The notes below the pieces were generated by a model that was not told the DNA's origin, searched no databases, and worked only from the letters and a program-made list of their open reading frames with translations. Below, one piece after another: positions 2,440 to 25,761 of a stretch of DNA of 38,065 nucleotides. Numbering within the stretch: position 1 is the stretch's first letter; the number at the start of each line of letters is the position of its first letter. Both the position numbers and the translations under genes were made by a program. Source of the stretch: an uncultured Lachnospiraceae bacterium (GTDB taxonomy: Bacteria > Bacillota > Clostridia > Lachnospirales > Lachnospiraceae); NCBI GenBank assembly GCA_947174985.1, contig CAMWLB010000001.1, forward strand, positions 1 through 38,065, in the 5' to 3' direction.

Positions 2440-2518
2440 CAGGTATGCCGGATACAAAAGATATGGATGGATTTATGGTATTCGGAGTATTTCCGGTATA
2501 CCGGAAAGAGAGATTGAG

Positions 2519-2959
2519 ATGAATAAAGTAATTCTTATGGGACGATTAACCAGAGATCCTGAAGTGAGATATTCTCAGGGAAGCAGCCAGACGGCAGTTG
2601 CGAGATTTTCCGTTGCAGTGGACAGAAGGTTCAAGAGGGACGGAGAGCCGGATGCAGATTTCTTTAACTGCACCGCGTTTGGCAAACAGGCAGAGTTTAT
2701 AGAGAGATACCTGCACAAGGGCACCAAGATAGTCCTCAGTGGGCGTATCCAGAACGATAACTACACCAACAGGGACGGACAGCAGGTTTACAGCGTCCGC
2801 GTCATGGTAGATGAGGTTGAGTTTGCTGAGAGCAAGAACGCTTCCGGAGATAACAGCGGTTACATGGGAGGTAATAATAACAGACCCGAGCCTTCAGGCG
2901 CAGGGGACGGTTTTATGAACATCCCGGACGGCATCGACGAAGAGCTGCCGTTTAACTAA
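2519..2959 (+). CDS. ssb: single-stranded DNA-binding protein
   Basis: MNKVILMGRLTRDPEVRY; acidic C-terminal DEELPFN tail. Confidence 0.98.
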   Translation: MNKVILMGRLTRDPEVRYSQGSSQTAVARFSVAVDRRFKRDGEPDADFFNCTAFGKQAEFIERYLHKGTKIVLSGRIQNDNYTNRDGQQVYSVRVMVDEVEFAESKNASGDNSGYMGGNNNRPEPSGAGDGFMNIPDGIDEELPFN

Positions 2960-2987
2960 TTTTTTGAAAGAATGGAGGCACTGACAT

Positions 2988-3251
2988 ATGGCATTCAATA
3001 AAGCAGACAAAGCTGATGCACCTATGAGAAAAAAGGGCGGCATCCGCAGAAGAAAAAAAGTTTGTGTATTTTGTGGCAAGGACAACGTAATTGATTATAA
3101 AGACGTAAACAAGTTAAAGAGATACGTATCCGAGAGAGGTAAGATTCTTCCCAGAAGAATCACCGGCAACTGTGCAAAGCATCAGAGAGCGCTCACCGCT
3201 GCGATTAAGCGTGCGCGTCACGTAGCACTGATGCCTTACGTTCAGGATTAA
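2988..3251 (+). CDS. rpsR: 30S ribosomal protein S18 (Zn-binding C+ form)
   Basis: CVFC...IDYKD...[19 protein letters not shown]. Confidence 0.98.
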
Positions 3252-3277
3252 GTTTCCGACACAAATGAAGCAGCGAG

Positions 3278-3312
3278 AGGCCAGCGGACAATCAGGTTCG
3301 CTGGCCTTTTTT
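3278..3312 (+). terminator. intrinsic terminator after rpsR
   Basis: AGGCCAGCG...CGCTGGCCT stem followed by a T run. Confidence 0.75.
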
Positions 3313-3329
3313 AAGGAGTGACAGTACAA

Positions 3330-5399: not shown

Positions 5400-5592
5400 T
5401 TATGCCTATGGTAAAGAGAGAATTCATCGAAGAGAACCCCTTTTTTCCATAGGGAAACGTTTTAAAAAGATAAAAACTCCTGCCATTCGACAAATTATCT
5501 TGTGGAAAGATATAAGAAAAAATGTTATACTATAGCAGGATAGGTTTAAAGCGGACATATCGCGGGGCCTTGCGATATGCAGGAGAGTATAC

Positions 5593-7644
5593 ATGAAGAA
5601 AAGAATCAGACTTAAAGGAAGAATTAAAACATATTTGCAGTTTTGCATATATCTGGGCGTGCTTCTGTTGATTGTGAATGGCGGCATGCTTGTCATTGAT
5701 TACCGCGCGGGGCTGCTGTTGGGGGCTTTTACCATATTCTATTTTGCAGTTACCCTGACCTTGTATTTTTACAATAAGCCGCTGATAATCAATGAGCTCG
5801 TCAGTTTTGCGACGCAGTACGGACAGATTCAGAAAAGGCTTTTACGCGAATTGGAGCTGCCGTATGCATTGCTGGATGATACGGGACGGGTGATTTGGAC
5901 AAACCAGGCATTTGAAAACGTTGTGAAGCAGCCGAAGGGCTTCAATAAGTCCATTATGGCGCTGTTTCCCTCCATTACAAGGGAGAAACTTCCGAACAAT
6001 GAGGAGATAGAGGAAGCGCAGTATGACATTGCCTATGAAGGTAAGGAATACATAGCTAAGTTTAAGCTGATTTCCTTAAAGGAGATGGCGGAAAACAGCG
6101 ACATGATTGAAGCGGAAGGGTATAGCGGATATCTGATAGCGGTCTATCTGTTTGATGAGACGGCGCTTCATATTGCCTTGCAGGAGGTTGACGATCAGAG
6201 CCTTGCAGTCGGTCTGCTGTATCTGGACAATTATGAAGAAGCGCTGGAAAGCGTGGAGGAGGTAAGACGTTCCCTTCTGATAGCCTTGATTGACAGGAAA
6301 ATCAATAAATACATTTCTGCGCTTGACGGTATTGTGAAAAAAATGGAGAAGGACAAGTATCTGATTGTCATGCGAAAAAAGTCCATTGCACAGCTTCAGG
6401 AGTCCCGTTTTGATTTGCTGGAGGATGTCAAGACGGTGAACATTGGCAACGAAATGGCGGTGACCATCAGCATCGGCGTTGGACTGGACGGGCTTACCTA
6501 TGCACAGAATTATGAGTTTGCCCGCAATGCCATCGATTTGGCGTTGGGGCGCGGCGGCGACCAGGCAGTGATTAAGACGCCGGAGAGCATTACCTACTAC
6601 GGCGGCAAGAGCCAGCAAGTAGAAAAGAATACCCGTGTCAAGGCGCGTGTCAAGGCACATGCCCTGAAGGAAATTATTGCGGGCAAGGACAGAGTGATTA
6701 TTATGGGCCACAGGCTCCCCGATGTGGACAGCTTCGGCGCAGCGGTGGGCATTTACCGGATAGCGCAGGCGCTGGACAGGAAGGCGCATATTGTATTAAA
6801 TGATGTATCCAACTCCCTGCAGCCCTTGGTGGACTTGTTTAAAAACAATCCTGAGTATGAGTCGGATATGATAGTGGGCAGCAGTCAGGCAATCGAGATG
6901 GCGGGAAGTAATACCGTGCTGGTGGTGGTGGATGTCAACAGACCGACCATCACGGAATGTCCTGATTTACTGCGGGCGTGCAAATCCATCGTGGTACTGG
7001 ACCATCACAGGCAAGGTGCGGAAACCATTGAAAATGCCACGTTATCCTACGTGGAGCCGTATGCTTCCTCTGCATGTGAAATGGTATCAGAGATATTGCA
7101 GTACACAACCGACAACATTAAAATCCGCACGGAAGAAGCGGACTGCATGTATGCCGGTATCGTAATTGATACAAACAACTTTATGAGTAAGACGGGTGTG
7201 AGAACTTTTGAAGCTGCTGCTTTCCTGCGCAGGAACGGCGCGGATGTCACCCGTGTCAGAAAGATGTTCCGCGAGGACGCCATTGAGTATAAAGCAAGGG
7301 CGGACGCGGTCAGTCAGGCTGAAATCTACCGGCAGACCTTTGCCATTTCTATCTGTACGAGCGAGGATTTGCAGAGTCCGACCGTGGTGGGTGCGCAGGC
7401 TGCAAACGAGCTTTTGAATATCAAGGGAATCAAAGCAAGTTTTGTGCTGACGGAATATCAGGGCAAGATTTATGTCTCGGCACGTTCCATCGACGAAGTC
7501 AATGTACAGATTATCATGGAAAGGCTGGGCGGCGGCGGTCATATGAGCATTGCCGGCTGCCAGATGGAAGGCGTAAGCATGGCGGAGGCAATCGGCAACC
7601 TGAAGGCTACTATAGATATTATGATTGAGGAAGGCGACATATAG
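5593..7644 (+). CDS. gdpP: cyclic-di-AMP phosphodiesterase GdpP (2TM-PAS-degenerate GGDEF-DHH/DHHA1)
   Basis: ALGRGGDQAV, MGH..PDVD, LDHHR, GGGGH motifs; lies upstream of rplI-dnaB. Confidence 0.93.
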   Translation: MKKRIRLKGRIKTYLQFCIYLGVLLLIVNGGMLVIDYRAGLLLGAFTIFYFAVTLTLYFYNKPLIINELVSFATQYGQIQKRLLRELELPYALLDDTGRVIWTNQAFENVVKQPKGFNKSIMALFPSITREKLPNNEEIEEAQYDIAYEGKEYIAKFKLISLKEMAENSDMIEAEGYSGYLIAVYLFDETALHIALQEVDDQSLAVGLLYLDNYEEALESVEEVRRSLLIALIDRKINKYISALDGIVKKMEKDKYLIVMRKKSIAQLQESRFDLLEDVKTVNIGNEMAVTISIGVGLDGLTYAQNYEFARNAIDLALGRGGDQAVIKTPESITYYGGKSQQVEKNTRVKARVKAHALKEIIAGKDRVIIMGHRLPDVDSFGAAVGIYRIAQALDRKAHIVLNDVSNSLQPLVDLFKNNPEYESDMIVGSSQAIEMAGSNTVLVVVDVNRPTITECPDLLRACKSIVVLDHHRQGAETIENATLSYVEPYASSACEMVSEILQYTTDNIKIRTEEADCMYAGIVIDTNNFMSKTGVRTFEAAAFLRRNGADVTRVRKMFREDAIEYKARADAVSQAEIYRQTFAISICTSEDLQSPTVVGAQAANELLNIKGIKASFVLTEYQGKIYVSARSIDEVNVQIIMERLGGGGHMSIAGCQMEGVSMAEAIGNLKATIDIMIEEGDI

Positions 7645-7665
7645 AATACAGCAGGAGGTACAATT

Positions 7666-8112
7666 ATGAAAATTATATTATTACAGGACGATAAAAATCT
7701 GGGAAAGAAAGGTGACATCATCGAAGCCAGCGATGGCTATGCAAGAAACTACATCCTTCCCAAGAAAATCGGAATCGAAGCCAATGCAAAAAACATGAAT
7801 GATTTGAAATTACAGAAGGCGAAGGAAGCTAAGATAGCGGCGGAGCAGCTGCAGACGGCGAAGGATTTGGCAGCAGTTTTGGAGACCAAGACCGTAGAGG
7901 TGAAAATTAAGGCGGGAGAAGGCGGCAGGGTATTCGGCTCTGTTTCTTCCAAAGAAATTGTGGCTGCATGCAAGGAACAGCATGGAATCGAGCTGGACAA
8001 GAAGAAAGTAGTGCTGCCGGAGGCATTGAAGAGTTTTGGCGCATATGAGGTAAATATCAAACTGCATCCGCAGGTGACTGCAAAACTGAAGGTGCATATA
8101 TCGGAGAGCTAG
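7666..8112 (+). CDS. rplI: 50S ribosomal protein L9
   Basis: MKIILLQDDKNLGKKGD...GYARNY; FGSVS. Confidence 0.98.
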   Translation: MKIILLQDDKNLGKKGDIIEASDGYARNYILPKKIGIEANAKNMNDLKLQKAKEAKIAAEQLQTAKDLAAVLETKTVEVKIKAGEGGRVFGSVSSKEIVAACKEQHGIELDKKKVVLPEALKSFGAYEVNIKLHPQVTAKLKVHISES

Positions 8113-8130
8113 GCGGGAAAGGAAATTGTT

Positions 8131-9468
8131 ATGCCCACAATGGAAGAAACCGTTTTAAAGAGAATATTGCCTCATAGCATGGAAGCGGAGCAGTCTGTCA
8201 TCGGTTCCATGATTATGGACAGGGAAGCCATTGTTGTGGCATCGGAGCTTGTGACCGGAGAGGATTTTTACAGCAGGCAGTATGGTATTCTTTTTGAAAC
8301 CATGGTAGAACTGCATAATGAAGGGAAGCCGGTGGATTTGGTCACGCTGCAGGACAGGCTCAAGGAAAAGGATGTGCCTCCTGAGGTCAGCAGCCTTGAA
8401 TTTGTCAGGGATTTAATCACCGCAGTTCCCACCTCGGCAAACATCAAGTATTATGCCGGAATCGTAGCAGAGAAAGCAACCTTAAGGAAGCTTATCCGCT
8501 TAAATGAAGAGATTGCGAATACCTGTTATGCAGGCAAGGAAAGCCTTGAAGTCATTTTGGAGGATACCGAAAAGAAGATTTTTGAGGTGGTGCAGAAGCG
8601 CAATACCGGGGAGTTTGTGCCAATCAGGCAGGTCGTGATGAATGCCATGGACAGAATTGAACGCGCTTCCAAAAATAAGGGCGCGGTGACGGGAATTGCG
8701 ACAGGCTTTGCAGACTTGGACTACAGGACAGCGGGCATGCAGCCGGCGGACCTGGTTCTGATTGCAGCCCGTCCCTCCATGGGAAAGACGGCGTTCGTGC
8801 TCAATATAGCGGAGCACGTAGCGTTTAAGCTCAATAAGACGATAGCCATTTTCAGTCTGGAAATGTCCAAGGAGCAGTTGGTAAACCGATTGTTTTCTCT
8901 GGAATCCAAGGTGGATTCGCAGCATATCAGGACGGGACAGCTTTCCGATCAGGAATGGGAGAAGCTGATTGAGAGCGCAGGTGTGATTGGCAAATCCAAT
9001 CTGATTATTGATGATACCCCGGGTATCAGCATTGCGGAGCTTCGCAGCAAGTGCAGAAAGTACAAGCTGGAGCATGATTTGTCCATGATTATCATCGACT
9101 ATCTGCAGTTGATGTCGGGAAGCGGGCGCACGGACTCCAGACAACAGGAAATATCCGATATTTCCCGCTCCTTAAAAGCAATTGCGAGAGAGCTTTCCGT
9201 GCCGGTGCTGGCATTATCGCAGTTGTCCCGTGCGGTGGAGCAGAGACCTGACCACAGACCGATGCTCTCAGACTTGCGTGAATCGGGAGCCATTGAGCAG
9301 GACGCCGACGTGGTTATGTTTATCTATCGTGATGAGTATTACAATCATGATACAGAACGGCCGGGCATTGCCGAGATTATCATTGCCAAGCAGAGAAACG
9401 GACCTATCGGCACCGTAGAGCTGGCATGGCTGCCCAACTACACCAAATTTGCCAATTTGGAGCGGTAG
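8131..9468 (+). CDS. dnaB: replicative DNA helicase
   Basis: AARPSMGKT, FSLEMS, IIDYLQLM, LSQLSR, DLRESGAIEQDAD, KQRNGP; no intein visible. Confidence 0.98.
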   Translation: MPTMEETVLKRILPHSMEAEQSVIGSMIMDREAIVVASELVTGEDFYSRQYGILFETMVELHNEGKPVDLVTLQDRLKEKDVPPEVSSLEFVRDLITAVPTSANIKYYAGIVAEKATLRKLIRLNEEIANTCYAGKESLEVILEDTEKKIFEVVQKRNTGEFVPIRQVVMNAMDRIERASKNKGAVTGIATGFADLDYRTAGMQPADLVLIAARPSMGKTAFVLNIAEHVAFKLNKTIAIFSLEMSKEQLVNRLFSLESKVDSQHIRTGQLSDQEWEKLIESAGVIGKSNLIIDDTPGISIAELRSKCRKYKLEHDLSMIIIDYLQLMSGSGRTDSRQQEISDISRSLKAIARELSVPVLALSQLSRAVEQRPDHRPMLSDLRESGAIEQDADVVMFIYRDEYYNHDTERPGIAEIIIAKQRNGPIGTVELAWLPNYTKFANLER

Positions 9469-12178: not shown

Positions 12179-14218
12179 TTATTTGTTTAAATCTAACTCC
12201 AGATCGCCGGAGAATACCTGAGCTTCCTTGCCGAGTGCGCCGGGGATGATGGTGAAGGTATTGGAGATACCGTCCTGTGCATCCTCGAAAGGCAGTTTTG
12301 CTACAGAAGAAAGGGAAGCAACAGCGCCGTGGGTATCACGTCCATGCATCGGGTTAGCACCAGGTGCAAAAGGCTGGCCTTTCTTACGTCCGTCAGGGGT
12401 GTTACCGGTTGCCTTGCCGTAGGTTACGTTGGAAGTAATGGTAAGAACGGACATGGTAGGAACACCGTTTCTGTATACGTGGTTTCTTCTGATTGCGGTC
12501 ATGAATCTGGATACGATGTCATGTGCAATGGTATCTACACGGTCGTCGTCGTTGCCGTATTTCGGGAAATCGCCGGTGGTCTTGAAGTCAACAATGATGC
12601 CGTCTTCGTCACGAACCACTTCAACCTTAGCGTACTTGATTGCGGAGAGGGAGTCTGCAACGATGGACAGACCAGCCAGACCGGTTGCAAAGTAACGCTT
12701 TACGTCTCTGTCATGAAGAGCCATCTGTGCTCTCTCATAGCAGTACTTGTCATGCATATAGTGGATAACATTCAGGGTGTTTACATAAACATCTGCCTGC
12801 CATTCCATCATATCGATGAATTTATCCATTACATCATCATAATCCAGAACGTCGCCGGTAACAGGACGGTACTTAGGTCCAACCTGTTTCTTGGTTACTT
12901 CGTCAATACCGCCGTTCAAAGCGTACAGAAGACATTTAGCCAGGTTAGCACGAGCACCGAAGAACTGCATTTCCTTACCGATAACCATGGAAGATACGCA
13001 GCATGCGATGCCGTAGTCGTCACCGTGGGTTACTCTCATCAAATCGTCATTCTCATACTGGATGGAAGAAGTCTGGATGGACATCTTTGCACAGTATCTC
13101 TTCCAGCTCTCAGGAAGTCTTGTGGACCAGAGAACTGTCAGGTTGGGCTCGGGAGAAGGTCCCAAGTTGGTCAGGGTGTGCAGATAACGGAAGCTCATCT
13201 TGGTTACCATATGACGTCCGTCAACACCAACACCGCCCAGAGATTCGGTTACCCAAACCGGGTCGCCTGCGAAAATCTGATTGTACTCAGGAGTACGTGC
13301 AAACTTGATGCAGCGCAGCTTCATAATGAAGTGGTCAACAAATTCCTGAATCTGCTCCTCGGTAAATACGCCTGCCTTTAAGTCTCTCTGCGCATAGCAG
13401 TCAAGGAAGGTGGAAGTACGTCCAAGGGACATAGCAGCACCGTTCTGCTCCTTTACAGCGCAGAGGTAACCGAAGTAAGTAGCCTGAATTGCTTCTTTTA
13501 CGTTAGTAGCAGGCTTGGAAATATCACAGCCATAGGAAGCAGCCATTTCCTTCATCAATTTCAGAGCAACCATCTGCTCGGAAATCTCTTCACGAAGACG
13601 GATAACGTCGTCTGTCATAACACGTCCGGTAGAATCCTTCTGTGCCTGTTTGTCTTCAATCAGTCTGTCGATACCGTACAGAGCAACACGTCTATAGTCG
13701 CCGATGATACGTCCGCGGCCGTAAGCATCCGGAAGACCTGTGATGATATGAGAAGAACGGCAGGCTCTCATTTCCTGATTGTATGCATCGAAGCAGCCTG
13801 CGTTGTGTGTCTTTCTGTGGGTGGAGAAGAACTCGCTCACTTCAGGGTCAACCTCGTAGCCATTGTCAGAACATGCCTTCTCTGCCATTCTGATACCGCC
13901 GTAAGGCTGCAGGGAGCGCTTAAACGGCTTGTCTGTCTGGAAGCCTACGATGGTCTCCTTATCTTTGTCAAGATATCCGGGTCCGTGGGAAGTGATGGTG
14001 GAGATAACCTTGGTGTCCATATCAAGAACGCCGCCTGCTTCTCTTTCCTTCTTCTGTAACTCCAATACCTGTGCCCATAAATCCTTTGTGTTCTGTGTAG
14101 CTTCGGCTAAGAAGGATTCGTCCCCGTCATAGGGCTCGTAATTCCTCTGGATGAAATCGCGAACATTGATTTCATTTTCCCATTTGCCGCCTACAAAATC
14201 ATTCCATTCTGGTCTCAT
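12179..14218 (-). CDS. pflB: pyruvate formate-lyase catalytic body (679 aa) lacking the glycyl-radical domain
   Basis: [29 protein letters not shown] active-site Cys pair, [13 protein letters not shown]; ends 15 aa after PGALGK; AGGAGG RBS before ATG 14218. Confidence 0.95.
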
Positions 14219-14284
14219 TTTGAAATGCCTCCTATAAAATTTGATTAGTTGAATCAGTGGTTCGGTTGCTAATCTTATGAAAAT

Positions 14285-14313
14285 ATTATATGAAAAACGT
14301 GTATACACGTCAA
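14285..14313 (-). promoter_or_regulatory. sigmaA promoter of the pfl operon, overlapped by a 14-bp palindrome
   Basis: Minus strand TTGACG-17 bp-TATAAT; ACGTGTATACACGT at 14297-14310. Confidence 0.75.
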
Positions 14314-14401
14314 GCGCGCAAATGTACTTTTTTCTATACAAATACTTATTTTAACTAATGTTTTACAAAAAATACAAGAAAAATTCATTTTTGGGAATGA
14401 C

Positions 14402-16130: not shown

Positions 16131-16343
16131 GTGTATGAAAAAGAAGGGCAGCGCCTGAAGGAAAAGCTGGAGAGTGTCAGAAAGTCCGGCGTCAGCCTTT
16201 TTCTGGAAGGAAAGCCGGCATCGCCGAGGGCGATAGCAGACAAATGCGTCCGCGAGGATGCCATCTATATGGCGGATTATGTGCTCGATGAGGACGGCAG
16301 ATTAAAAGAGCTGCGATATGACAGGATAACGGACTGGAAGTAA
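16131..16343 (+). CDS. small hypothetical protein (70 aa)
   Basis: AAAGGAGG RBS before GTG 16131; globular-looking sequence ending YMADYVLDEDGRLKELRYDRI. Confidence 0.7.
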   Translation: MYEKEGQRLKEKLESVRKSGVSLFLEGKPASPRAIADKCVREDAIYMADYVLDEDGRLKELRYDRITDWK

Positions 16344-16614: not shown

Positions 16615-18333
16615 ATGAAAAAAGCCATACCGGTGTTGATTGCCATTATACTGATTATTATTATAGGAGCCGCCGCTTTTGGGGCAAAGATTATTGAAAA
16701 ATATTCCTATTCCCGTGAGAGGGCGGACTTATACGAATATTTTCACATTACAAAAGAAGATGAAGTGTCGATTGTCCTGCAGGATGAAATGGTGGAAGAG
16801 AAGGCGTTCATGAAGGATGGCGTATGCTATTTTGACCTTGCAACGGTACACCGTTATTTTAACGACAGATTCTATGTGGATTCGGTGGAGCAGCTTCTTC
16901 TCTATACGACACCCACTGATATTATACGGACGCCAATCGGCACCAATGCATTCCAGATAAACGGCGCGCCTCAGGACGCCGGATATATGCTAAGTTTTTC
17001 CCGTACCAGCGGCGATGTTACCACTTATTATGTAGCGGCCGATTTTGTAAAACAGTACACCAATTTCTCCTATCAGGTGTTTGAGAACCCGCTGCGTATG
17101 CAGGTCTATACAGAGTGGGAGCAGAGGCAGGTAGCCGATATTTCCGCTGCCACGGCAGTCAGGGTGTTAGGCGGAGTAAAAAGCCCTATCTTAAGGGATT
17201 TGTCTGCTTCGGAAACCGTGATAATCCTTGACAAAATGGAGACATGGTGCAAGATTAAGACGGAAGATGGGATGATAGGCTATGTGGAAAACAAATTTTT
17301 GGAAAATGAGCGGGAGGAAACGCCGGAACCGGTGACGGATGTAGTACCTCCGGTATATACCTCTCTTACGCGAGATAAGAAAATCTGTATCGGCTGGCAT
17401 GCTGTTGCATCCTCCAGCGGCAATGATACGCTGAATAAGGTGACTGCCGATGCGAGCTCGCTGACAGTGATTGCGCCTACTTGGTTCAGCCTAAAGGATA
17501 ATGAAGGAAACATCCAGAGTTTTGCCTCGTCCTCTTATGTGGAAAAGGCGCATAACAAGGGGCTGGAAGTGTGGGGTGTTGTAGATGATTTCAATTACCG
17601 TGCCAATACAGGCGAGGAGGTGGACGTATATACGATACTGTCCGCAACCACGACGAGAACTTATCTGATAGACAGGATTATGGAGGCGGCGGCAGCCTGC
17701 GGCATGGACGGTATTAACATAGACTTTGAAAATATCACTGCTGAGTCAGGGGAACATTTTATCCAGTTTTTGCGGGAGTTGTCCATAAGATGTCGTGAGG
17801 CGGGGCTGGTGCTTTCGGTGGACAATTATGTTCCGTATAATTTCAATTCTTTCTACGATTTTGAAGAACAGGGAGTGGTTGCCGACTATGTGATTGTCAT
17901 GGGATATGACGAGCACTGGGCGGGCAGTCAGGAAGCGGGTTCGGTTGCATCCATTGATTATGTAAGGGGCGGCATCGAGAGAACCGTTGCAAATGTGCCT
18001 GCCAACAAGGTGATTAATGCGCTGCCTTTTTATACCAGATTATGGAAGGTAGAGGGGACGACGGTTACGAGCGAAGCATATCCGATGGCGAATGTGGATT
18101 CCGTTCTGAACACGTATGGCATGGAAGCAGAATGGGACGAGACGACGGGACAAAATTATGCAGAAGTCACCAAAGATGGGACAAGTTATCAGATATGGAT
18201 TGAGGATTTGCAGTCCATCAGCGTAAAACTGAACGTGATGCAGAGCTATAATCTGGGAGGCGTCGCCGCATGGCGTCTGGGCTACGAGCCTGCGGCTGTG
18301 TGGGAGGTTATAGCTTCCTATCTGGAGCAGTAA
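16615..18333 (+). CDS. membrane-anchored SH3 + GH18 glycoside hydrolase (spore peptidoglycan hydrolase/chitinase-like)
   Basis: N-terminal TM segment; SH3b-like WCKIKTEDGMIGYV; DGINIDFE catalytic motif; VMGYDEHW; AAWRLG. Confidence 0.9.
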   Translation: MKKAIPVLIAIILIIIIGAAAFGAKIIEKYSYSRERADLYEYFHITKEDEVSIVLQDEMVEEKAFMKDGVCYFDLATVHRYFNDRFYVDSVEQLLLYTTPTDIIRTPIGTNAFQINGAPQDAGYMLSFSRTSGDVTTYYVAADFVKQYTNFSYQVFENPLRMQVYTEWEQRQVADISAATAVRVLGGVKSPILRDLSASETVIILDKMETWCKIKTEDGMIGYVENKFLENEREETPEPVTDVVPPVYTSLTRDKKICIGWHAVASSSGNDTLNKVTADASSLTVIAPTWFSLKDNEGNIQSFASSSYVEKAHNKGLEVWGVVDDFNYRANTGEEVDVYTILSATTTRTYLIDRIMEAAAACGMDGINIDFENITAESGEHFIQFLRELSIRCREAGLVLSVDNYVPYNFNSFYDFEEQGVVADYVIVMGYDEHWAGSQEAGSVASIDYVRGGIERTVANVPANKVINALPFYTRLWKVEGTTVTSEAYPMANVDSVLNTYGMEAEWDETTGQNYAEVTKDGTSYQIWIEDLQSISVKLNVMQSYNLGGVAAWRLGYEPAAVWEVIASYLEQ

Positions 18334-18379
18334 ACAAAAGATGTGCATACAGGCTGCATATGCCGACGATTTGTGCATG

Positions 18380-18408
18380 GCATAAGAGCCGTTTCCGACT
18401 CATATATT
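18380..18408 (+). promoter_or_regulatory. sigmaE-type (mother-cell) promoter of the interrupted amidase
   Basis: GCATAAG-14 bp-CATATATT fits the B. subtilis sigmaE consensus. Confidence 0.65.
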
Positions 18409-18438
18409 TTGGTAAATATGGAGTCGGGACGGATCATC

Positions 18439-18601
18439 ATGGAGCGAAAAAAATACATTGCGGCGTATATTACAGCGGCAATCATTCTGGCAGTAGCAGT
18501 GCCGGCAGCAATCAAAAAAACAGCAAAGGAAACCGCCGCCACAGAGGGCGCGAAAGCGGATGACAGACCCTGCGTCGTTCTGGACGCGGGGCATGGCGGC
18601 G
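18439..18601 (+). CDS. cwlD: 5' segment of an interrupted CwlD-type N-acetylmuramoyl-L-alanine amidase
   Basis: TM/signal segment then CVVLDAGHGG; the frame runs into the element and stops at 18609; alternative start at 18418. Confidence 0.85.
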
Positions 18602-18619
18602 GTAAGTAGCGGAAGAGTT
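18592..18619 (+). repeat. attL: core CATGGCGGCG plus element arm
   Basis: Core 18592-18601 is identical to 25207-25216; arm 18594-18619 is a 20/26 inverted match to 25181-25206. Confidence 0.88.
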
Positions 18620-18729
18620 CTCGTTTTCTATTTTAAATTCTATTTTTTGTAAATTCACTAAGTTGTAGCATGCTGATGAATTGCTTGATAATCATCCAAT
18701 TATAATTATAATTCACAGGAGAGATAATA

Positions 18730-19245
18730 GTGTCAAATGTTATATCGTTCAATGGTAAGGTTACACCTGATGACGATTCCCTCGTAATGTCAAACGGTGG
18801 CACAGATATGTTTATCAATATTCTTGCTTTGAGTGGAGCCGTAATTGCGCAAACTGAAAGTGAAAAGCAGATAATGGTTTATTTGTCTGAAAAAGACCAA
18901 ATCGTCGGCAGAGGCTGTGTTGGGTTTGCGATTGTTGAAATGCCGTGGGATAAAGAAACATTTGAAGCAGATAAGAGTTTTGTGATTAAGGTAATAAACG
19001 GGGCAAGAAACAAAATCGGTTGGGAGAAACTTGACTACAGTCCAAACGAGGAATTTGTTTCGCATTATTTAGATACCTTTGAAAATTTGATAAACAGAAT
19101 GACAATTGATGATATCAGAGAGGAGTCATTGGAGAATTGGCTGGCGGCGGCAGAGGCAGGTGACCCTATCTATTGTAATTTCCCGCGATGTAAGAAACAT
19201 AATACTTTTTTGACCTGTTTTGGGTGTCAGATATGTAATCATTAA
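18730..19245 (+). CDS. hypothetical cargo protein with a C-terminal Cys/His cluster
   Basis: AGGAG RBS; ends CKKH-x5-CFGCQICNH; AT-richer than the flanks. Confidence 0.75.
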   Translation: MSNVISFNGKVTPDDDSLVMSNGGTDMFINILALSGAVIAQTESEKQIMVYLSEKDQIVGRGCVGFAIVEMPWDKETFEADKSFVIKVINGARNKIGWEKLDYSPNEEFVSHYLDTFENLINRMTIDDIREESLENWLAAAEAGDPIYCNFPRCKKHNTFLTCFGCQICNH

Positions 19246-19279
19246 ACTTGAATATGCAAAAATACGCAGAAAAACCGAG

Positions 19280-19309
19280 ACATACCGTACAAGCTCTAAT
19301 CCATATACT
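19280..19309 (+). promoter_or_regulatory. sigmaE/sigmaK-like promoter of the small ORF-recombinase operon
   Basis: ACATACC-15 bp-CATATACT; no clear sigmaA promoter seen here. Confidence 0.5.
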
Positions 19310-19340
19310 TGTGTGAAAGGTGTTTCGGAGATACGGCGTA

Positions 19341-19469
19341 TTGGAGAAGGAAGGAAAGGAAAATATATCCTACAGTATTGAGAGGGAGTTTTTGGAAAAA
19401 GTTGATGTTTCTGAGCTGATAAGCCGTATTATTCGGGCACATGTAAAGCCAGAGGTGAAAACGTCGTGA
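19341..19469 (+). CDS. 42-aa ORF coupled to the recombinase (candidate recombination directionality factor; absent from the ORF track)
   Basis: TTG start after GGAG; MEKEGKENISYSIEREFLEKVDVSELISRIIRAHVKPEVKTS; TGA overlaps the recombinase GTG (GTGA). Confidence 0.55.
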   Translation: MEKEGKENISYSIEREFLEKVDVSELISRIIRAHVKPEVKTS

Positions 19470-21067
19470 AGACTTTTTTTAATGCTGCGGCATATATTAG
19501 GTTGTCCAGAGAAGACGGCGACAAAGCGGAAAGTGACAGCATAAGCAATCAGAGAAGACTCATTGCTGATTATGTAAAAGAAAAAGAAGATTTGGCGATA
19601 TATGATACCTATGTTGACGACGGTTTCACGGGGATCGATTTTAACCGTCCGTCGTTTCGGCGGATGATTGACGACATTGAAGCCGGAAAAGTAAATTGTG
19701 TGATTGTTAAGGATTTATCTCGTTTCGGGCGCGATTATATCGATACAGGCAGGTATCTGGAACGGTATTTTCCCGAGAGGGACGTGCGTTTTATTTCTGT
19801 CACGGACAGTATTGACAGCGCAAAGCAGGCATATGACATGCTTCTGCCAATTAAGAATATTTTTAATGAACAGTACGCAAGGGATATTTCCCAAAAAATT
19901 CATGCCGCTGTCAGAACCAAACAAAAGGCAGGGGAATTTATCGGAGCATTTGCTTCTTATGGTTACCGGAAAGCGTCGTCGGACAAGAACAGGCTGGTCG
20001 TGGATGCATATGCGGCGGAGATTGTAAGAAGAATTTTTGAGTTGTATATCAGAGGCTGCGGAAAACTCCGCATTGCTGCCATATTAAATGAGGAGGGCAT
20101 TGTCTGCCCGTCTGAGTATAAGAAAATCAATGGCGAGAATTACAGAAATGCCCGCCGTCTGAACAGCACCTCTTATTGGACATATTCTACCATAAACCGT
20201 ATTTTACAGAATGAAATGTATATTGGTAATATGGTGCAGGGCAGAAAGCGCCAGCAGATGAGAAGTAGGGCAAGGGCGGCGGAACGCAGTGAATGGATTG
20301 TGGTGGAGGGAACCCACGAAGCAATCATTGACAAGGATACATGGGAAAAAACACAGGAGCTGTTAAAACGCAGGACGAGAAATATGGATTTGCACAGGAA
20401 CACGGCAGTTTTTGCCGGTTTTCTGAAATGCGGCGACTGTGGGAGGGCATTGGTAAAAAAGGCATATGCGCCGGAGCATAACGGCAAAAAAAGCGAGTCC
20501 GGCGTCAACTATTATTGCGGGACATATGTGCGCTCCGGCAGGCAGTATTGTACGCCACACAAGATTGGATACGATGTGTTGGAAAATATTATACTGGGCG
20601 ATTTGAAGGTTATGCTTCAAAGCACGGACAATTTGAAAGAGCTTGCAGCCGGAGGGATGGCGGGCAGCATGGCTGTGCCGGACAGTAGGGAAGCCGCAAA
20701 GATAACAACACAGGCAGAGCTTGAAAAAATCCGAAAGCTGAAAAAGGCGGTCTATGAAGATTATCGGGAAGAACTGATTTCGAAAGAGGAGTTTGTCAGT
20801 TACAGGCAGGACTATGCCCAAAAAGAAGAATTACTGGTCAAACAACTGTCATGTGTGGAAAAAAAGACTGGCAGTGCGGAGGAAAATGTCTTCGATACAG
20901 CGTGGTTTCAACGTCTGTTGGAATATCGGGAGGTGGAAAAACTGGACAGGGCGGTGGTGGTTGAAATGCTCCATGAAATCAAGGTGTACGAAAACCATAG
21001 AGTTAAAATTACCTATAATTTTTCCGGCGAATTGTCTCCGCTTTTTGCGGATAATGCATACGGCTGA
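19466..21067 (+). CDS. large serine recombinase (SpoIVCA/TnpX-like family)
   Basis: YIRLS catalytic Ser, DDGFTG..FNRP, VKDLSRFGR, YGY, HEAII, zinc ribbon CGDC...YYC...C, coiled coil. Confidence 0.96.
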   Translation: MKTFFNAAAYIRLSREDGDKAESDSISNQRRLIADYVKEKEDLAIYDTYVDDGFTGIDFNRPSFRRMIDDIEAGKVNCVIVKDLSRFGRDYIDTGRYLERYFPERDVRFISVTDSIDSAKQAYDMLLPIKNIFNEQYARDISQKIHAAVRTKQKAGEFIGAFASYGYRKASSDKNRLVVDAYAAEIVRRIFELYIRGCGKLRIAAILNEEGIVCPSEYKKINGENYRNARRLNSTSYWTYSTINRILQNEMYIGNMVQGRKRQQMRSRARAAERSEWIVVEGTHEAIIDKDTWEKTQELLKRRTRNMDLHRNTAVFAGFLKCGDCGRALVKKAYAPEHNGKKSESGVNYYCGTYVRSGRQYCTPHKIGYDVLENIILGDLKVMLQSTDNLKELAAGGMAGSMAVPDSREAAKITTQAELEKIRKLKKAVYEDYREELISKEEFVSYRQDYAQKEELLVKQLSCVEKKTGSAEENVFDTAWFQRLLEYREVEKLDRAVVVEMLHEIKVYENHRVKITYNFSGELSPLFADNAYG

Positions 21068-21097
21068 CATTAGCAGACTGAAAGGGATAAAATTAAT

Positions 21098-21622
21098 TTG
21101 AAGATACAAATTGTGGAAAGCATGTCCGGACATAAGGTGGTAGTTCTGCCGGAAATTATTTTTAAAAACAGACAAAATATTGACTGGAACGCAGTTGAAA
21201 AATATTTGCAGAGGTATGTTGGAGAGATTGTTAGGATTGCAGAGACAGAAGATATTGTCTATATTGGCATAGATTTTCCGAACGAATATAAAGGCTCTAA
21301 ATATACCAAACGTTTGAAGGGGGCTAATGCGAAAGCAAAAGCAAATGCGGCGCAGGGGATTCTGGAAATGTTGGAAATTGCTACAGAAAGGCATTTTAGT
21401 GAAAATCGAAAGAATAAACACTCCACTAGCGCAGGAAATGGTTGGTATTATTATACAACATATTTTGCGCTGCCTATATATGAAGATAATGTAAAAACAA
21501 ATAATTACCATATTTATTCTGCTTGTCTACTTATCAATCGGACAAAGTTCGGAAAGATGTATTTGTATGATTTGGTAGATATAAAAAGAGAAGCAAGTAC
21601 CCCACTCAAGACTATCAACTAG
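21098..21622 (+). CDS. hypothetical protein resembling LPD3/PBECR-like (RelE/barnase-like fold) domains
   Basis: Basic protein with AKAKANA, NRKNKH, GWYYY and YLYDLVDIK motifs; family assignment from memory only. Confidence 0.55.
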   Translation: MKIQIVESMSGHKVVVLPEIIFKNRQNIDWNAVEKYLQRYVGEIVRIAETEDIVYIGIDFPNEYKGSKYTKRLKGANAKAKANAAQGILEMLEIATERHFSENRKNKHSTSAGNGWYYYTTYFALPIYEDNVKTNNYHIYSACLLINRTKFGKMYLYDLVDIKREASTPLKTIN

Positions 21623-21684
21623 ACAAGTGGTACAAAACTGCTTCTCTTTGAATAAACAATAGTATTTTTATTTAATATTGTCAA
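21585..21684 (-). ncRNA. putative ~65-nt antisense RNA with its own sigmaA promoter
   Basis: Minus-strand TTGACA(21684-21679)-17 bp-TATTGT; the transcript would fold AAAGAGAAGCA/TGCTTCTCTTT and end in Us, overlapping the last 38 nt of the 21098 ORF. Confidence 0.4.
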
Positions 21685-21718
21685 GTGCTTTTCGACAAAT
21701 TTTGAAAAGCGAGGAGTG

Positions 21719-22327
21719 TTACACAATCGGGAAATCAAAATAGCAGTCGGGATAGGGTTCATCTTTCAGCAGATAATGCCACCACTCGTTTTCATAGGCT
21801 TCGAAACCGCTGTATTCCATGATGGAGCGTAACAGTCTGCGGTGTTTTGCTTCGGCGGCTGTAACATCTGTTGAGGCATGGTGCGAGCGTTCGTCCATGA
21901 AATCAAAATCGCTTCCCATAGCAACCATATCGCCTGTGTCCAACTGATAAATGGTAAGGTCAACGGCGCTTCCCCGACTGTGGCTTGACTGTGAGGCGAC
22001 GTACCCCAGGGATATCATTTCTTCCCGCGCAATATTGGGGTAATGCTTTTCCTTTGTGCGGCCGTCTTCCGGCTGCTCGGACCAGCGGAGAAAGCAGTCT
22101 ACTGCGCGCTGGGGGCGATAGGCGTCCCAGAGAAGCAGGCCATATCCAAGGGCGGCGGCCTGTTCCCGGGCTTTTTGCAATGCCTCTGCCAGTTCAAAGG
22201 TTCCGACGATTCGATTGGCTTCGTATCCGTTTACCGGCCTTCCGGTGAAGTTATCCCATGTGGCATATTTGGCGTCCCAACGGATTCCATGCACTGCTTC
22301 ATCTAAAAAGACAAATCCTTTTTCCAT
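21719..22327 (-). CDS. vanX: D-Ala-D-Ala dipeptidase VanX (202 aa)
   Basis: MEKGFVFLDE...WDAKYATWDNFTG, DAYRPQ, SSHSRGSAVD, EWWHY. Confidence 0.97.
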   Translation of the reverse strand: MEKGFVFLDEAVHGIRWDAKYATWDNFTGRPVNGYEANRIVGTFELAEALQKAREQAAALGYGLLLWDAYRPQRAVDCFLRWSEQPEDGRTKEKHYPNIAREEMISLGYVASQSSHSRGSAVDLTIYQLDTGDMVAMGSDFDFMDERSHHASTDVTAAEAKHRRLLRSIMEYSGFEAYENEWWHYLLKDEPYPDCYFDFPIV

Positions 22328-22332
22328 ATGTA

Positions 22333-23364
22333 TCACCCCCTTTTTGCCAGCGAAATAAGACGGTCGATTATCTCTGAAACAGTGATTCCGGCAGATTTCA
22401 TCATGCGTGGATAGCGGCTGTAGGAGGTAAAACCGGGCAGGGTATTGACTTCATTGAGTACAATGCGTCCATCCTCCTGCAGGAACATGTCAACGCGGGC
22501 GAGTCCTCTGCAGCCGAGGGCCCGATAAATTGTCTTGGCAGTCTCTTTTAATTCTGTCTGTTTTTGGGGAGGCAGATTTGCCGGAACGGTAAAGGCTGCA
22601 TTTTCAGAGCCGTTTTCGGGGTCGGATTCTTGATGTATGCGGAAGAAACCGTGAGACAGGGTAATGGAATCTATTTCGCCGGTAATTAAAAAGTTGCTAT
22701 TTCCAAGCACGGCGCAGCCGGTTTCCACACCGGAAACGGCCTGTTCAATCAGGACCTTGTTGTCATATTGCAGTGCCATTTTGATAGCGGCATCCAGTTC
22801 GCTTTCCTGATACACCTTGCTCACGCCAAAAGAGGAACCTGAGCGGGCGGGCTTTACAAAGACCGGATAGGCTGGGATATCAATCTCCGGCATGTCATCA
22901 GGATGTAAAATCTGAAATGCAGGAACGGCGATGCCGGCATTTGCCGCCATTATGTAGGCAAGAGATTTGTCCATGCAGATTGCCGAGGCTGCAATGTCGC
23001 AGCCAACGTAAGGGATACCGGATAACTCCAGCAAGCCCTGTATGGAGCCGTCCTCGCCAAACCTGCCATGCAGAACAGGGAAAACTACGTCGATATAGAT
23101 GGTCCGGCATTTGTCGTCTGGAAGGGTTATAAGTCCATGCACCGTCCTGTCCGGAGAGATGGCCGCTGGGCAGCACTTTCCGTTTTCCCAATCGGGACAG
23201 GGCTTTTCACACATCAGCCAGCTGCCGGAGCGTGTAATGCCGACATAGGTTATATCGTACTTTTCCGTGTCAATATAGTTTGCGATTTCCTGTGCCGATT
23301 TGACAGAGACATCGTGCTCTTCCGAGCATCCTCCGAACAAAACGGCAATCTTTAGTTTATTCAT
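22333..23364 (-). CDS. vanA: D-Ala-D-lactate ligase, VanA/VanB/VanD-like (type not assignable by eye)
   Basis: FGGCSEEHDVSVKSA, KPARSGSSFG, omega loop FFRIHQE..PE.GSENA with the D-Lac-selective His, NEVNTLPGFTSYSRYPRM; 343 aa; located between vanH and vanX. Confidence 0.92.
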   Translation of the reverse strand: MNKLKIAVLFGGCSEEHDVSVKSAQEIANYIDTEKYDITYVGITRSGSWLMCEKPCPDWENGKCCPAAISPDRTVHGLITLPDDKCRTIYIDVVFPVLHGRFGEDGSIQGLLELSGIPYVGCDIAASAICMDKSLAYIMAANAGIAVPAFQILHPDDMPEIDIPAYPVFVKPARSGSSFGVSKVYQESELDAAIKMALQYDNKVLIEQAVSGVETGCAVLGNSNFLITGEIDSITLSHGFFRIHQESDPENGSENAAFTVPANLPPQKQTELKETAKTIYRALGCRGLARVDMFLQEDGRIVLNEVNTLPGFTSYSRYPRMMKSAGITVSEIIDRLISLAKRG

Positions 23365-24316
23365 TCTTTTGTTTCCTTTCGTATGTTAGGCAATTTAACA
23401 GTGTTTTTTCAACCGTGTCATATAGAACATGGCGTGTGTAATATGCCGTATGCGGCGTGACAATGACATTCTGTATTTTTTGAAGTCTTGGCAGGAAGGG
23501 ATGGGAAAGTGGTTTCTGTGAATAGTCAGAATAGAAAATTTCTTCTTCTCCTTCCAGTACGTCAAGGGCGGCTCCGCCCAGCCGATGGTTTTCCAGTGCA
23601 TGGATGAATGCTTCCGTATCGATAAGAGCGCCGCGTGCGGTGTTGACCAAAATAGCGTCCTGCTTCATCATTTTGAATTGTTCTTTGCCGATGAGGTGGT
23701 GCGTATCGGCGTTAAGCGGTACATGGAGCGTGACAACGTCGCTTTTTTCAAGCAGTTCATGCAGTGGTACGCTGCCCGCACTGTTATTTATGTCGCAAAC
23801 CAGTACATGACAGCCAAAGGCGTGGAGTCTCTTAATTACGGCGCGTCCGATATGTCCTGCGCCTACAACACCGACCGTCATGCCGCTCAGTTCCTTTCCG
23901 CGGACGGGCGGCAGGCGGAAGTCATTGTGCGCCACCTGCTTCAGTGTGGATTTTGCGGTGCGCAGTGCCATCAGTATCAGCATCAGTGTATAGTCGGCGA
24001 CTCCGTCCGGCGGATATGCCACATTTTCAACAGTGATTCCAAGTTTTTGGGCGGCTTTGGAATCGATATGGTCATACCCGATGCTGCGGGTGCAGATGTA
24101 TGTGACACCGGCTTTTTGCAGTGCTGATAAATCAGATTCGGCTATACGAGATTTGTGCCCCACACTGATACAGCGGCTGCAGGGGCAGGGGATGCTGTCG
24201 TGTCTTGCCGGTTCTGACAAAATGACAGGCACAATGCCGAAACGCGGTGAAAGTTCACGGAACGCCTCTGCTTCATCTTTTTCACAGTTGAATATGGTAA
24301 TTTCCAGCGGTTTCAT
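23357..24316 (-). CDS. vanH: D-lactate dehydrogenase VanH
   Basis: CISVGHKS, TRSIGYDHID, VADYTLMLILMALR, GAGHIG, NTARG, TPHTAYYT. Confidence 0.95.
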   Translation of the reverse strand: MKPLEITIFNCEKDEAEAFRELSPRFGIVPVILSEPARHDSIPCPCSRCISVGHKSRIAESDLSALQKAGVTYICTRSIGYDHIDSKAAQKLGITVENVAYPPDGVADYTLMLILMALRTAKSTLKQVAHNDFRLPPVRGKELSGMTVGVVGAGHIGRAVIKRLHAFGCHVLVCDINNSAGSVPLHELLEKSDVVTLHVPLNADTHHLIGKEQFKMMKQDAILVNTARGALIDTEAFIHALENHRLGGAALDVLEGEEEIFYSDYSQKPLSHPFLPRLQKIQNVIVTPHTAYYTRHVLYDTVEKTLLNCLTYERKQKNE

Positions 24317-24358
24317 CTTTCATTTCCGGTTATCCTTTCCTTGGATTTGGCAATGGCT

Positions 24359-25060
24359 TTATTTTTCGATGGTGTATCCGACGCCCCACACCGTTTTGAT
24401 GAACTTTGGGTTTCTGGCAGGCTCGCTCATTTTTTCTCTCAGCCTGCCGATATGGGCCATAACCGTGTTGTTATCAATCAGGGCTCTTTCCCCCCATACC
24501 GCTTCAAACAGCTCTTCCGAAGAAATGACAATTCCCCGATGCTCGCAGAGATACCAGAGAATGGAAAATTCTATGGGCGTCAGGTGCAATTCCCTGCCAT
24601 ACAGAGTGCATTTATGACTGTCTCTGTTGATGACAAGCTCACTGATGGCATATTCATGTGCGGTTTCGGCCTGTTTGGGGGCGGGTTGGTTATACTGCAT
24701 ATACCGCCGCAGTTGTGTTTTTGCTCTTGCAGCCACTTCAAGTGGGGTGATAGGGTTTGTGATATAGTCGTCAGCGCCGATTGTCAGTCCCATAATCGTG
24801 GCACTGTCGTCAGATTTTGTGGAGAGCATGATAATGGGGTAATAAGATTTCGCCCTGATTCTTTTGCAGATTTGGAAACCGTCCACATCGGGAAGCTGCG
24901 CGTCCAGTATTGCCAGGTCCAAAGCTGTATTCTCGATACAGGAAAGCGCCTCGAGACCTGTGTAAAATTTGTGGACAGTGTATCCGTCATTTGTAAGGTA
25001 GACAGCTATGACATCTGCCAGTTCTTTTTCATTAACCGCTACCAGAATATGTATGCTCAT
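24359..25060 (-). CDS. vanR: VanR-like OmpR-family regulator with a degenerate receiver domain
   Basis: DLAILD53, GLTIGADDYIT, NNTVMAHIGRLREKM, IKTVWGVGYTIEK; acidic pair and conserved Lys are substituted. Confidence 0.88.
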   Translation of the reverse strand: MSIHILVAVNEKELADVIAVYLTNDGYTVHKFYTGLEALSCIENTALDLAILDAQLPDVDGFQICKRIRAKSYYPIIMLSTKSDDSATIMGLTIGADDYITNPITPLEVAARAKTQLRRYMQYNQPAPKQAETAHEYAISELVINRDSHKCTLYGRELHLTPIEFSILWYLCEHRGIVISSEELFEAVWGERALIDNNTVMAHIGRLREKMSEPARNPKFIKTVWGVGYTIEK

Positions 25061-25109
25061 TTTGTACCCGTGTCTTCCTTTGTGATATTTTTACTTTAAT
25101 TTCGCAATT

Positions 25110-25175
25110 ATTATATCAATGAATAAGGATGGGGTTCTTTTGTTTTATCTGCGAATTTTCCTAAGATTTTCTTAA
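25110..25175 (-). promoter_or_regulatory. van operon promoter: extended -10 plus tandem 11-bp OmpR/VanR-type boxes
   Basis: Minus strand TGATATAAT (25118-25110); TTAAGAAAATC/TTAGGAAAATT tandem repeat (25175-25154). Confidence 0.6.
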
Positions 25176-25180
25176 AAAGA

Positions 25181-25216
25181 AAAACTGCCGCAAGTAACCG
25201 CCGCCACATGGCGGCG
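25181..25216 (+). repeat. attR: element arm plus core CATGGCGGCG
   Basis: AAAACTGCCGCAAGTAACCGCCGCCA|CA|TGGCGGCG. Confidence 0.88.
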
Positions 25217-25761
25217 ACGACCCGGGAAAGGTCGGGATTAACGGGGCACTGGAAAAGGATTTGAACTTGGAGATTGCATTGCTTGTAAAAAAGTATCTGG
25301 AGATGGATGACGTCAGGGTGGTAATGACGAGAGAAGGTGAAGACGGTCTTTACGACGCAGGCGCTTCCAATAAAAAAGTACAGGACATGAAGAGGCGGAT
25401 AGCAATTATTGAAGAGACAGAGCCGGTTATAACGGTTAGCATCCATCAGAATAGTTATCCGGAGGAATATGTCCATGGCGCGCAGGTCTTTTTCTATTCG
25501 GGAAGTGCGGAGGGACAAAAACTGGCAGAAAAAATACAGAACAGGCTGATTGTCGGATTGGACCCGGATAACCATCGCGGCGTCAAACCAAATGACAGTT
25601 ACTATCTTTTGAAAAAAACGCCGACGACGATTGTAATTGTCGAATGTGGATTTCTGTCTAACACCGAGGAAGCGGAAAAGCTTTGTTCGGAAGAATACCA
25701 GGAAAAGCTGGCATGGGAAATCCATTTGGGCATTATGCAGTACTTAAATGAGTTGAAATAG
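25207..25761 (+). CDS. cwlD: 3' segment of the interrupted CwlD-type amidase (Amidase_3)
   Basis: Reads HGGDDPGKVGINGALEKDLNLEIA...DMKRR...SIHQNS...GAQVFF...VECGFLSN from the core repeat; has no start or RBS of its own. Confidence 0.9.
   Translation, partial: HGGDDPGKVGINGALEKDLNLEIALLVKKYLEMDDVRVVMTREGEDGLYDAGASNKKVQDMKRRIAIIEETEPVITVSIHQNSYPEEYVHGAQVFFYSGSAEGQKLAEKIQNRLIVGLDPDNHRGVKPNDSYYLLKKTPTTIVIVECGFLSNTEEAEKLCSEEYQEKLAWEIHLGIMQYLNELK

Follow-up and report, generated by a model that had tools for sequence, protein, structure and literature searches.

The interrupted cwlD locus

The window analysed here is a stretch of 38,065 nucleotides from an uncultured Lachnospiraceae bacterium (contig CAMWLB010000001.1 of assembly GCA_947174985.1, positions 1 to 38,065 of the forward strand), in which the gene for a spore-cortex amidase of the CwlD type is split into two halves by a 6,615-bp element carrying a large serine recombinase and a cluster of vancomycin-resistance-type (van) genes (Table 1). 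The 5′ half has a hydropathy of 2.39 from residue 7, and the 3′ half finds its best NCBIfam match in the CwlD family TIGR02883, scoring 187.6 against a cut-off of 221.55 when this half is scored alone, a cut-off passed by the intact copies of the genus in 1 of 151 genomes. Among solved structures, the 3′ half comes closest to C. difficile CwlD (7rag_B, E 2e-34), and hence NCBIfam and the PDB together identify the interrupted gene as a CwlD-type, sporulation-specific one.

The window contains exactly two copies of a 10-nt repeat (at 18592 and at 25207), and computed removal of the 6,615 bp that separate them yields a cwlD frame of 708 nt, coding for 235 amino acids plus stop without internal stops, as the first-pass annotation of this DNA had claimed. 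The break was also correctly placed there at the His codon of the DAGHGG motif, since the CA core of the repeat falls in the zinc-His codon. The inner arms of the element form an inverted pair, matching at 18 of 22 positions and centred on this CA, a pairing reached by none of 200,000 random pairs of 22-mers drawn from the element. By this pattern, the arm and core geometry is that of a serine-integrase site and the CA of the His codon is the predicted crossover core. With a short core, inverted arms and a reading frame restored on precise removal, the element has the hallmarks of a gene-intervening element.

The rejoined protein starts with a hydrophobic N-terminus and contains H52, E67, H131 and E197, aligned with H49, E65, H133 and E199 of C. 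difficile CwlD, and thus has the zinc ligands, the catalytic Glu and the N-terminal membrane anchor expected of this family. Mutating H49, E65 or E199 abolishes function in C. difficile (PMC8496864), where cwlD is under sigma-E control (PMC3789822). The His codon is itself regenerated on the attR side, and an in-frame stop stands four codons ahead of it in the attR arm, which rules out a spare 5′ end. Moreover, the 3′ half cannot work alone, because its first ATG, GTG or TTG is codon 19, downstream of the His and Glu zinc ligands.

Contents of the element

The large serine recombinase noticed in the first-pass annotation is confirmed by matches to the Resolvase, Recombinase and Zn-ribbon domains at 19466-21067, and the element thus encodes its own intact enzyme. 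Family profile scans matched none of the open reading frames (ORFs) of the element to phage, relaxase or conjugation families, in agreement with the earlier statement that such genes are absent, and hence it does not qualify as a prophage, an integrative and conjugative element (ICE) or a mobilisable element. Two features go beyond the earlier annotation, namely the van cluster, which takes up over half of the element, and a 42-aa ORF at 19341-19469. This ORF is found in 69 of the 76 related loci that have at least 300 nt upstream; it has no Pfam or PHROG family match and its Atlas matches are nameless clusters at 0.84-0.85. Its product is a candidate recombination directionality factor, a role suggested by its position and conservation next to the recombinase. 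The accessory orfB is skipped in contigs from other sequencing runs.

Table 1. Features of the split cwlD gene and of the element within it (window coordinates)
Feature	Position	Strand	Remarks
Host cwlD promoter-like site, sigma-E type	18380..18408	+	-35 box, 14 nt, -10 box
5′ half of cwlD	18439..18591	+	Open frame; membrane-anchor-like hydrophobic segment and first strand, ends at zinc-His codon
attL	CA core 18592-18593; 10-nt repeat to 18601; element arm to 18615	+	
Sigma-A-like promoter before orfA	18685-18712	+	
Accessory orfA	18730-19245	+	171 aa, no family; some sister elements lack it
Sigma-E-like promoter with SpoIIID-like box in spacer	19280..19309	+	Conserved; putative function; precedes small ORF and recombinase
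42-aa ORF, candidate recombination directionality factor	19341..19469	+	Stop overlaps recombinase start
Large serine recombinase	19466..21067	+	533 aa, intact
Accessory orfB	21098..21622	+	174 aa, no family; absent from related strains
VanX D-Ala-D-Ala dipeptidase	21719..22336	-	NF033115, 367 bits vs cut-off 320
D-Ala-D-Lac ligase	22333..23364	-	NF000206, 593 vs 550
VanH-like D-lactate dehydrogenase	23357..24316	-	NF000492, 466 vs 540, under cut-off
VanR-like regulator	24359..25060	-	347.5 vs 350, under cut-off; degenerate phosphorylation pocket
Extended -10-type site ahead of van cluster	25110..25118	-	In 4/4 copies with this end; putative function
attR	element arm 25185-25206; CA core 25207-25208; repeat to 25216	+	
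3′ half of cwlD	25207..25761	+	184 aa, Amidase_3

A clade sharing the insertion and selection on the split gene

The counts given below come from separate genome sets, which may overlap and are not summed, and the trees are quick or FastTree versions. A CwlD-type match is present in 147 of 151 genomes of the genus, mostly whole among the best matches listed, and in nine other genus genomes it begins at the same break, with attR-type junctions in all nine. Six of these nine elements are assembled end to end (2.7-9.5 kb) and differ in cargo. The comparison of cwlD in relatives proposed with the first-pass annotation has thus revealed different cargo at the same codon; within the clade of five genomes described next, a search for empty sites found none.

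Among 269 genus genomes, the five closest 3′ halves (92-100% identity) are all split, and an intact cwlD above 85% identity was not found, the nearest intact copy lying at 85%. The five split genomes form one branch, with a support of 98 in the Shimodaira-Hasegawa-like approximate likelihood-ratio test (SH-aLRT), and the split label needs at least four changes over the 65 rows of the quick tree. All five have vanR and vanH adjoining attR and the in-frame stop four codons ahead of the His codon. Each contains one CwlD-type gene, which is split, and a second cwlD was rejected as an explanation in all five, the split copy being the sole CwlD-type gene found.

Selection was analysed over the five van-element loci, namely the window, L129, L130, L131 and L180. 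The ratio of nonsynonymous to synonymous substitution rates (dN/dS) is 0.025-0.044 for the 3′ half of cwlD (6 pairs, L130 lacking this end), as low as the 0.040-0.083 of a host glycoside hydrolase (GH18) gene, and 0.035-0.33 for the 5′ half (10 pairs, 51 codons). Element genes give 0.11-0.17 for the recombinase, 0.09-0.24 for the small ORF and 0.05-0.22 for the van genes, and none of the genes compared across the five loci contains a stop. These ratios indicate that both cwlD halves are under purifying selection. A second intact cwlD or decay of the halves, which the first-pass annotation had named, together with a missing attB and circle, as speaking against its reading, were accordingly not found in these relatives. 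At the same time, dS of the recombinase and van genes tracks that of host genes up to about 1-2; between the window and L180 it reaches 1.15 for the GH18 gene, 0.86 for the recombinase, 1.60 for the ligase and 1.55 for the 3′ half of cwlD. Given this joint rise in host and element genes, inheritance of the element from the common ancestor onwards is very likely, with the split gene remaining functional throughout. The shared insertion, the lack of a second cwlD and of a spare 5′ end, and the selection on both halves together mean that the gene is very likely rebuilt.

One of the elements found at this His codon, that of L051 (1-3950), is 2.9 kb long and stands apart from the others: its recombinase is only 35% identical, its arms differ, its small ORF has diverged and it carries a PIN-domain gene; by these differences, the same cwlD codon is seen to be targeted independently. 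Seven genus genomes (L055-L061) have a second, unrelated cwlD insertion site directly 3′ of the catalytic Glu codon, with a common end sequence, and three-recombinase cassettes are assembled at this site in L056, L059 and L060.

Regulatory signals and host sporulation genes

The promoter, the small ORF and the recombinase are conserved together as a module. The small ORF is preceded by the pattern GCATATT-15-(C/A)RTAT(G/A)YT, and a box resembling the B. subtilis SpoIIID box lies in the spacer of 49 of 72 element promoters as compared to 2 of 253 host motif matches. The pattern is sigma-E-like. The -35 part of the element fits the sigma-E -35 pattern, which contains ATA (PMC3789822). A matrix derived from 11 elements assigns 14.3 to the host cwlD promoter, within the top 0.4% of 2,149 host upstream regions, and 16.5 to a site found near the pdaB-like gene of the host. 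When a motif was derived de novo from the upstream regions of 30 element-free cwlD genes, it likewise contained a sigma-E-like -10; the same -10 is chosen in L049, L052, L053 and L054, and a different site in the window. Sister elements without orfA and its promoter keep the sigma-E-like site. The recombinase and the small ORF are thus placed behind a putative sigma-E-like promoter with a SpoIIID-like box.

The host genome has sigE, spoIIID, spoIVA, yqfC-like and pdaB-like genes; sigK and spoIIIAA were not found in its assembly, which is 84% complete, and a full-length, unsplit sigK-type gene is present in all four clade relatives.

The van cargo

The minus-strand cargo is a vanR-vanH-ligase-vanX cluster, whose ligase and VanX both score above their family cut-offs. 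The ligase falls below the cut-offs for VanA, VanB, VanD, VanF, VanI, VanM and VanO, so that no named type tested was reached; its close homologues are nameless, and identity to the named ones does not exceed about 71%. No vanS lies in the element, and an orphan vanS elsewhere was rejected, no VanS being above cut-off in the five genomes (this one and four relatives). The VanR-like regulator lacks the conserved phosphorylation-pocket residues that two kinase-paired relatives keep. With no vanS and a degenerate receiver pocket, the cluster does not show the VanS/VanR inducible control of vanHAX operons. The extended -10 site is likely a vegetative promoter for the van cluster.

As compared to vanHAX-type clusters (VanA, B, D, F, I, M and O), vanH, ligase and vanX keep their customary order and are accompanied by a regulator of the VanR family, whereas the element's cluster lies below all named-type cut-offs tested, is without vanS, vanY and vanW, has a degenerate regulator pocket and is very likely vertically inherited inside a spore-gene element. 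The vanP cluster (PMC8431993) is set apart by its gene order, H-P-X-R-S, and by its site, an ICE that has inserted in msbA.

The wider recombinase family and its targets

At least 550 relatives of the recombinase were confirmed, their records being mostly from Lachnospiraceae, and the best 80 were analysed. Their junctions lie in pdaB (28, assigned by best NCBIfam match, below cut-off, in three fragments), in cwlD-type genes (25), in a second amidase (13) or in amidases represented by the 5′ half only (5), with 9 unresolved; all 71 resolved junctions among these best 80 are therefore within amidase or pdaB genes. The second amidase combines Amidase_3 with SPOR in five of six tested, an arrangement that we take to be the CwlC-like layout. 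cwlC is a late mother-cell gene (PMC517825).

Twenty-nine elements of 2.6-11.1 kb are fully mapped (L155 being left out as doubtful), and 25 of them rejoin to a full-length frame; among the other four, three have further breaks downstream and one lies at a contig end. Empty sites have in common Asp-Ala-Gly/Ala codons, then the core, then Gly..Asp. The core reads CA in amidases and TG in pdaB, and therefore the element sits flipped in pdaB. A FastTree tree of 58 rows requires 17 or more changes of the target gene, and recombinases 96% identical occupy cwlD and pdaB in different species. A pooled target-site scan of the host recovered both host amidases but not its pdaB-like gene. Cargo of mapped relatives includes genes for sugar uptake, salvage of nicotinamide adenine dinucleotide, sensors and ATP-binding cassette transporters, and no phage, relaxase or conjugation genes were found among the 49 cargo proteins scanned of the 67 listed. 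A separate draw found the recombinase in 15 of 300 family genomes, some at the ends of conjugative-looking elements; judged by eye, the same module ends such elements in L080-L083.

Several members of this family show additional peculiarities. Among the cargo in L152 are a VTC-domain gene and a protein with a CotH-kinase domain, so that the element splitting a spore gene may itself carry genes related to spores, and an element of similar size occurs in L153. The pdaB 3′ halves of L160, L196 and L206 are broken again downstream, in L206 beside another serine-recombinase-like ORF, and by this arrangement are nested insertions in one gene. The recombinase itself is interrupted in L088, L174, L181 and L186 by a segment with another recombinase (of the DUF4368 type in the two scanned), the pdaB halves still being open where both were mapped.

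Other features of the genome

Just upstream of cwlD, a GH18 and SH3 protein (16615-18333) and a 70-aa ORF (16131-16343) are kept in many genus relatives and are possibly germination-related. Further upstream, a pyruvate formate-lyase-like ORF of 720 aa (12179-14341) seems, by eye, to fall short of the usual glycyl-radical C-terminus. On contig C21 of G000 (6601-8625, L100), a 140-aa 5′ fragment of a Mn-catalase (cotJC-like) lies opposite a further large serine recombinase; this genome thus probably has a second sporulation gene that is split. Contig C49 of G000 (2335-7291) contains three tandem large serine recombinases after holin-like and amidase-like ORFs, as judged by eye.

Excision as the probable route to a functional CwlD

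It is very likely that excision of the element restores cwlD, and DNA excision is the simplest remaining route to a functional product. The more specific proposal, that excision is programmed in the mother cell and rebuilds cwlD while the spore keeps the element with its van cargo, is probable on the comparative evidence. Sigma-E, probably with SpoIIID, would transcribe the 42-aa ORF together with the recombinase in a single unit, and under the influence of the small protein the recombinase would turn to excision, joining attL x attR at the CA core. Full-length CwlD for synthesis of the cortex delta-lactam would next be produced from the sigma-E-type promoter that belongs to the host. The rearranged copy would not be inherited, because the mother cell lyses. 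Loss of the recombinase should yield poorly germinating spores and so lock the element in, and the van genes would be carried as passengers, with expression likely driven by a vegetative promoter of their own and no VanS sensor involved.

The first-pass annotation had proposed such a programmed rearrangement. Its need for excision is strongly supported by the sole gene copy, the attR stop and the selection, while neither the excision event nor its restriction to the mother cell was observed. The junction search suggested with it was run on 8 of the 19 listed sequencing runs, all in the form of assembled contigs, a material of low power, and yielded neither an exact attB nor a circle joint. One related-strain contig spans the integrated form. 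A loose joint from 18055 to 25216 in run X7, with a short side of 45 nt, was rejected as lying off the att core and probably stemming from another organism.

Besides these missing joints, several observations weigh against mother-cell programming. The circle-junction motif had 0 matches in metagenome and viral contig collections, a scan of low power in which the integrated arm itself gave 2 true matches and 12 of 14 looser arm matches were unrelated DNA. Since 11 elements served to train the promoter matrix, the high scores of 63 of 72 elements reflect conservation only, and host spoIIID (8.0), yqfC (8.9) and spoIVA (6.2) are not exceptional with it; its genome-wide scan is noisy, with a top list that is not obviously sporulation-rich. 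The SpoIIID-like box agrees only in part with the published C. difficile box (PMC5025042). Transcription from the sigma-A-like promoter before orfA could leak into the module, no terminator-like site standing ahead of the recombinase. Finally, the target motif is rare in the host, and therefore sequence preference alone could explain the three targets.

The leak is the starting point of the foremost alternative, in which leaky or stress-linked expression, and not a developmental cue, yields a subpopulation with intact cwlD, as with yin in yabG, which is excised at all time points (PMC10747680); the 96%-identical recombinases across species and target genes would then attest to continuing mobility elsewhere. 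It appears unlikely, since cells excising before sporulation would pass on an empty site, of which none was found in the five-genome clade, and since sister elements that keep the sigma-E-like site lack orfA with its promoter. A reversible switch, with sporulation-linked excision in both compartments and the circle re-integrating in the spore or after germination, could draw on the intact recombinase and arms, which should allow attP x attB integration, and on the expression of B. subtilis cwlD in the forespore; the promoter conserved here is of the mother-cell type, though, and the element lacks a replication gene by which a circle could be maintained, making this switch quite improbable.

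Function without DNA excision, be it from a spare promoter with its 5′ end, from an internal start or after RNA splicing, could invoke the His codon regenerated at attR, but is very improbable in view of the stop ahead of it in all five genomes, the late first start codon and the conservation of the host 5′ half itself; an RNA intron was rejected, the element having no Rfam match at E <= 0.05. The idea that the insertion merely killed cwlD in a lineage no longer needing it, to which the missing sigK and spoIIIAA and the 4 of 29 non-rejoining elements might point, is just as improbable and largely refuted by the absence of stops, dN/dS far below 1 over dS above 1 and the full-length sigK-type gene of the four relatives.

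Mother-cell excision thus being preferred, a broader generalisation is favoured on balance, though less firmly. A widespread Lachnospiraceae module, composed of a sigma-E/SpoIIID promoter, a 42-aa directionality factor and an integrase, may dock in a flip-symmetric codon motif of CwlD, a CwlC-like amidase and PdaB, all three of them wall enzymes of the mother cell, each being developmentally rebuilt. Target choice across the family would follow this shared DNA motif, with flipped orientation in pdaB. The module would serve as a sporulation-addiction platform for any cargo, here locking an ancient sensor-less D-Ala-D-Lac cluster into a clade.

Programmed rearrangement in spore formers, known from a handful of single cases, would thereby extend to cortex and wall enzymes and reach a large, mostly uncultured bacterial group. 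Purifying selection on a gene split across species boundaries offers culture-free evidence of function. Resistance-type genes could be kept without antibiotic selection, since the recombinase would not be droppable without losing germination. The compact integrase and candidate directionality factor, with known sites, might be usable in vitro, and annotators are cautioned that split cwlD and pdaB genes are not pseudogenes.

Comparison with known gene-intervening elements

Split targets named in PMC4191935, PMC5595907, PMC6957869 and PMC10747680 are sigK, spsM, spoVFB, spoVR, gerE, kamA and yabG, and the passages of these four papers do not mention cwlD. Durrant et al. (PMC10083194) list the Gene Ontology term amidase activity for 5 of 1,069 targets versus 1 of 908 random ones, which is not significant, and the parts covered, including 8 supplement files, contain no cwlD, pdaB or sporulation term and no developmental reading; PMC12084326 gave no match either. 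The earlier remark that cwlD had not been described as a target holds for the literature searched, in which no report of a split cwlD or pdaB target was found, pdaB being more thinly covered and target catalogues possibly listing them.

SPbeta in spsM (SprA/SprB; PMC4191935) and yin in yabG (PMC10747680) are likewise serine-recombinase elements that split a spore-envelope gene, but they are prophages or prophage-like, whereas the cwlD element has no phage genes. Excision of skin from sigK takes place in the mother cell through a large serine recombinase under sigma-E and SpoIIID, while the germ line keeps skin, the recombination proteins being SpoIVCA in B. subtilis and CD1231 with CD1234 in C. 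difficile (PMC5025042, PMC517825, PMC6957869). The element described here is not a skin element in the strict sense, since its target is the enzyme gene cwlD and not a sigma factor gene, sigK being unsplit in the four clade relatives. It also differs from C. difficile skin, in which the recombinase is constitutive and the small factor alone is regulated, as both appear here to be under one promoter.

The gin element in gerE of Bacillus cereus ATCC 10987 shares with it the non-phage nature, a sporulation gene as target, a short core repeat and a serine recombinase (GirC) accompanied by a small protein of equal length (the 42-aa GirX), and its expression is sporulation-timed (PMC5595907). The likeness of the 42-aa ORF to GirX is one of length, and gin spans 28.6 kb with three recombinases, as compared to 6.6 kb, one recombinase, the target cwlD and a small ORF overlapping the recombinase start in this case. 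Thus, on its structure, the element interrupting cwlD belongs to the skin/gin/vfbin class of sporulation gene-intervening elements.

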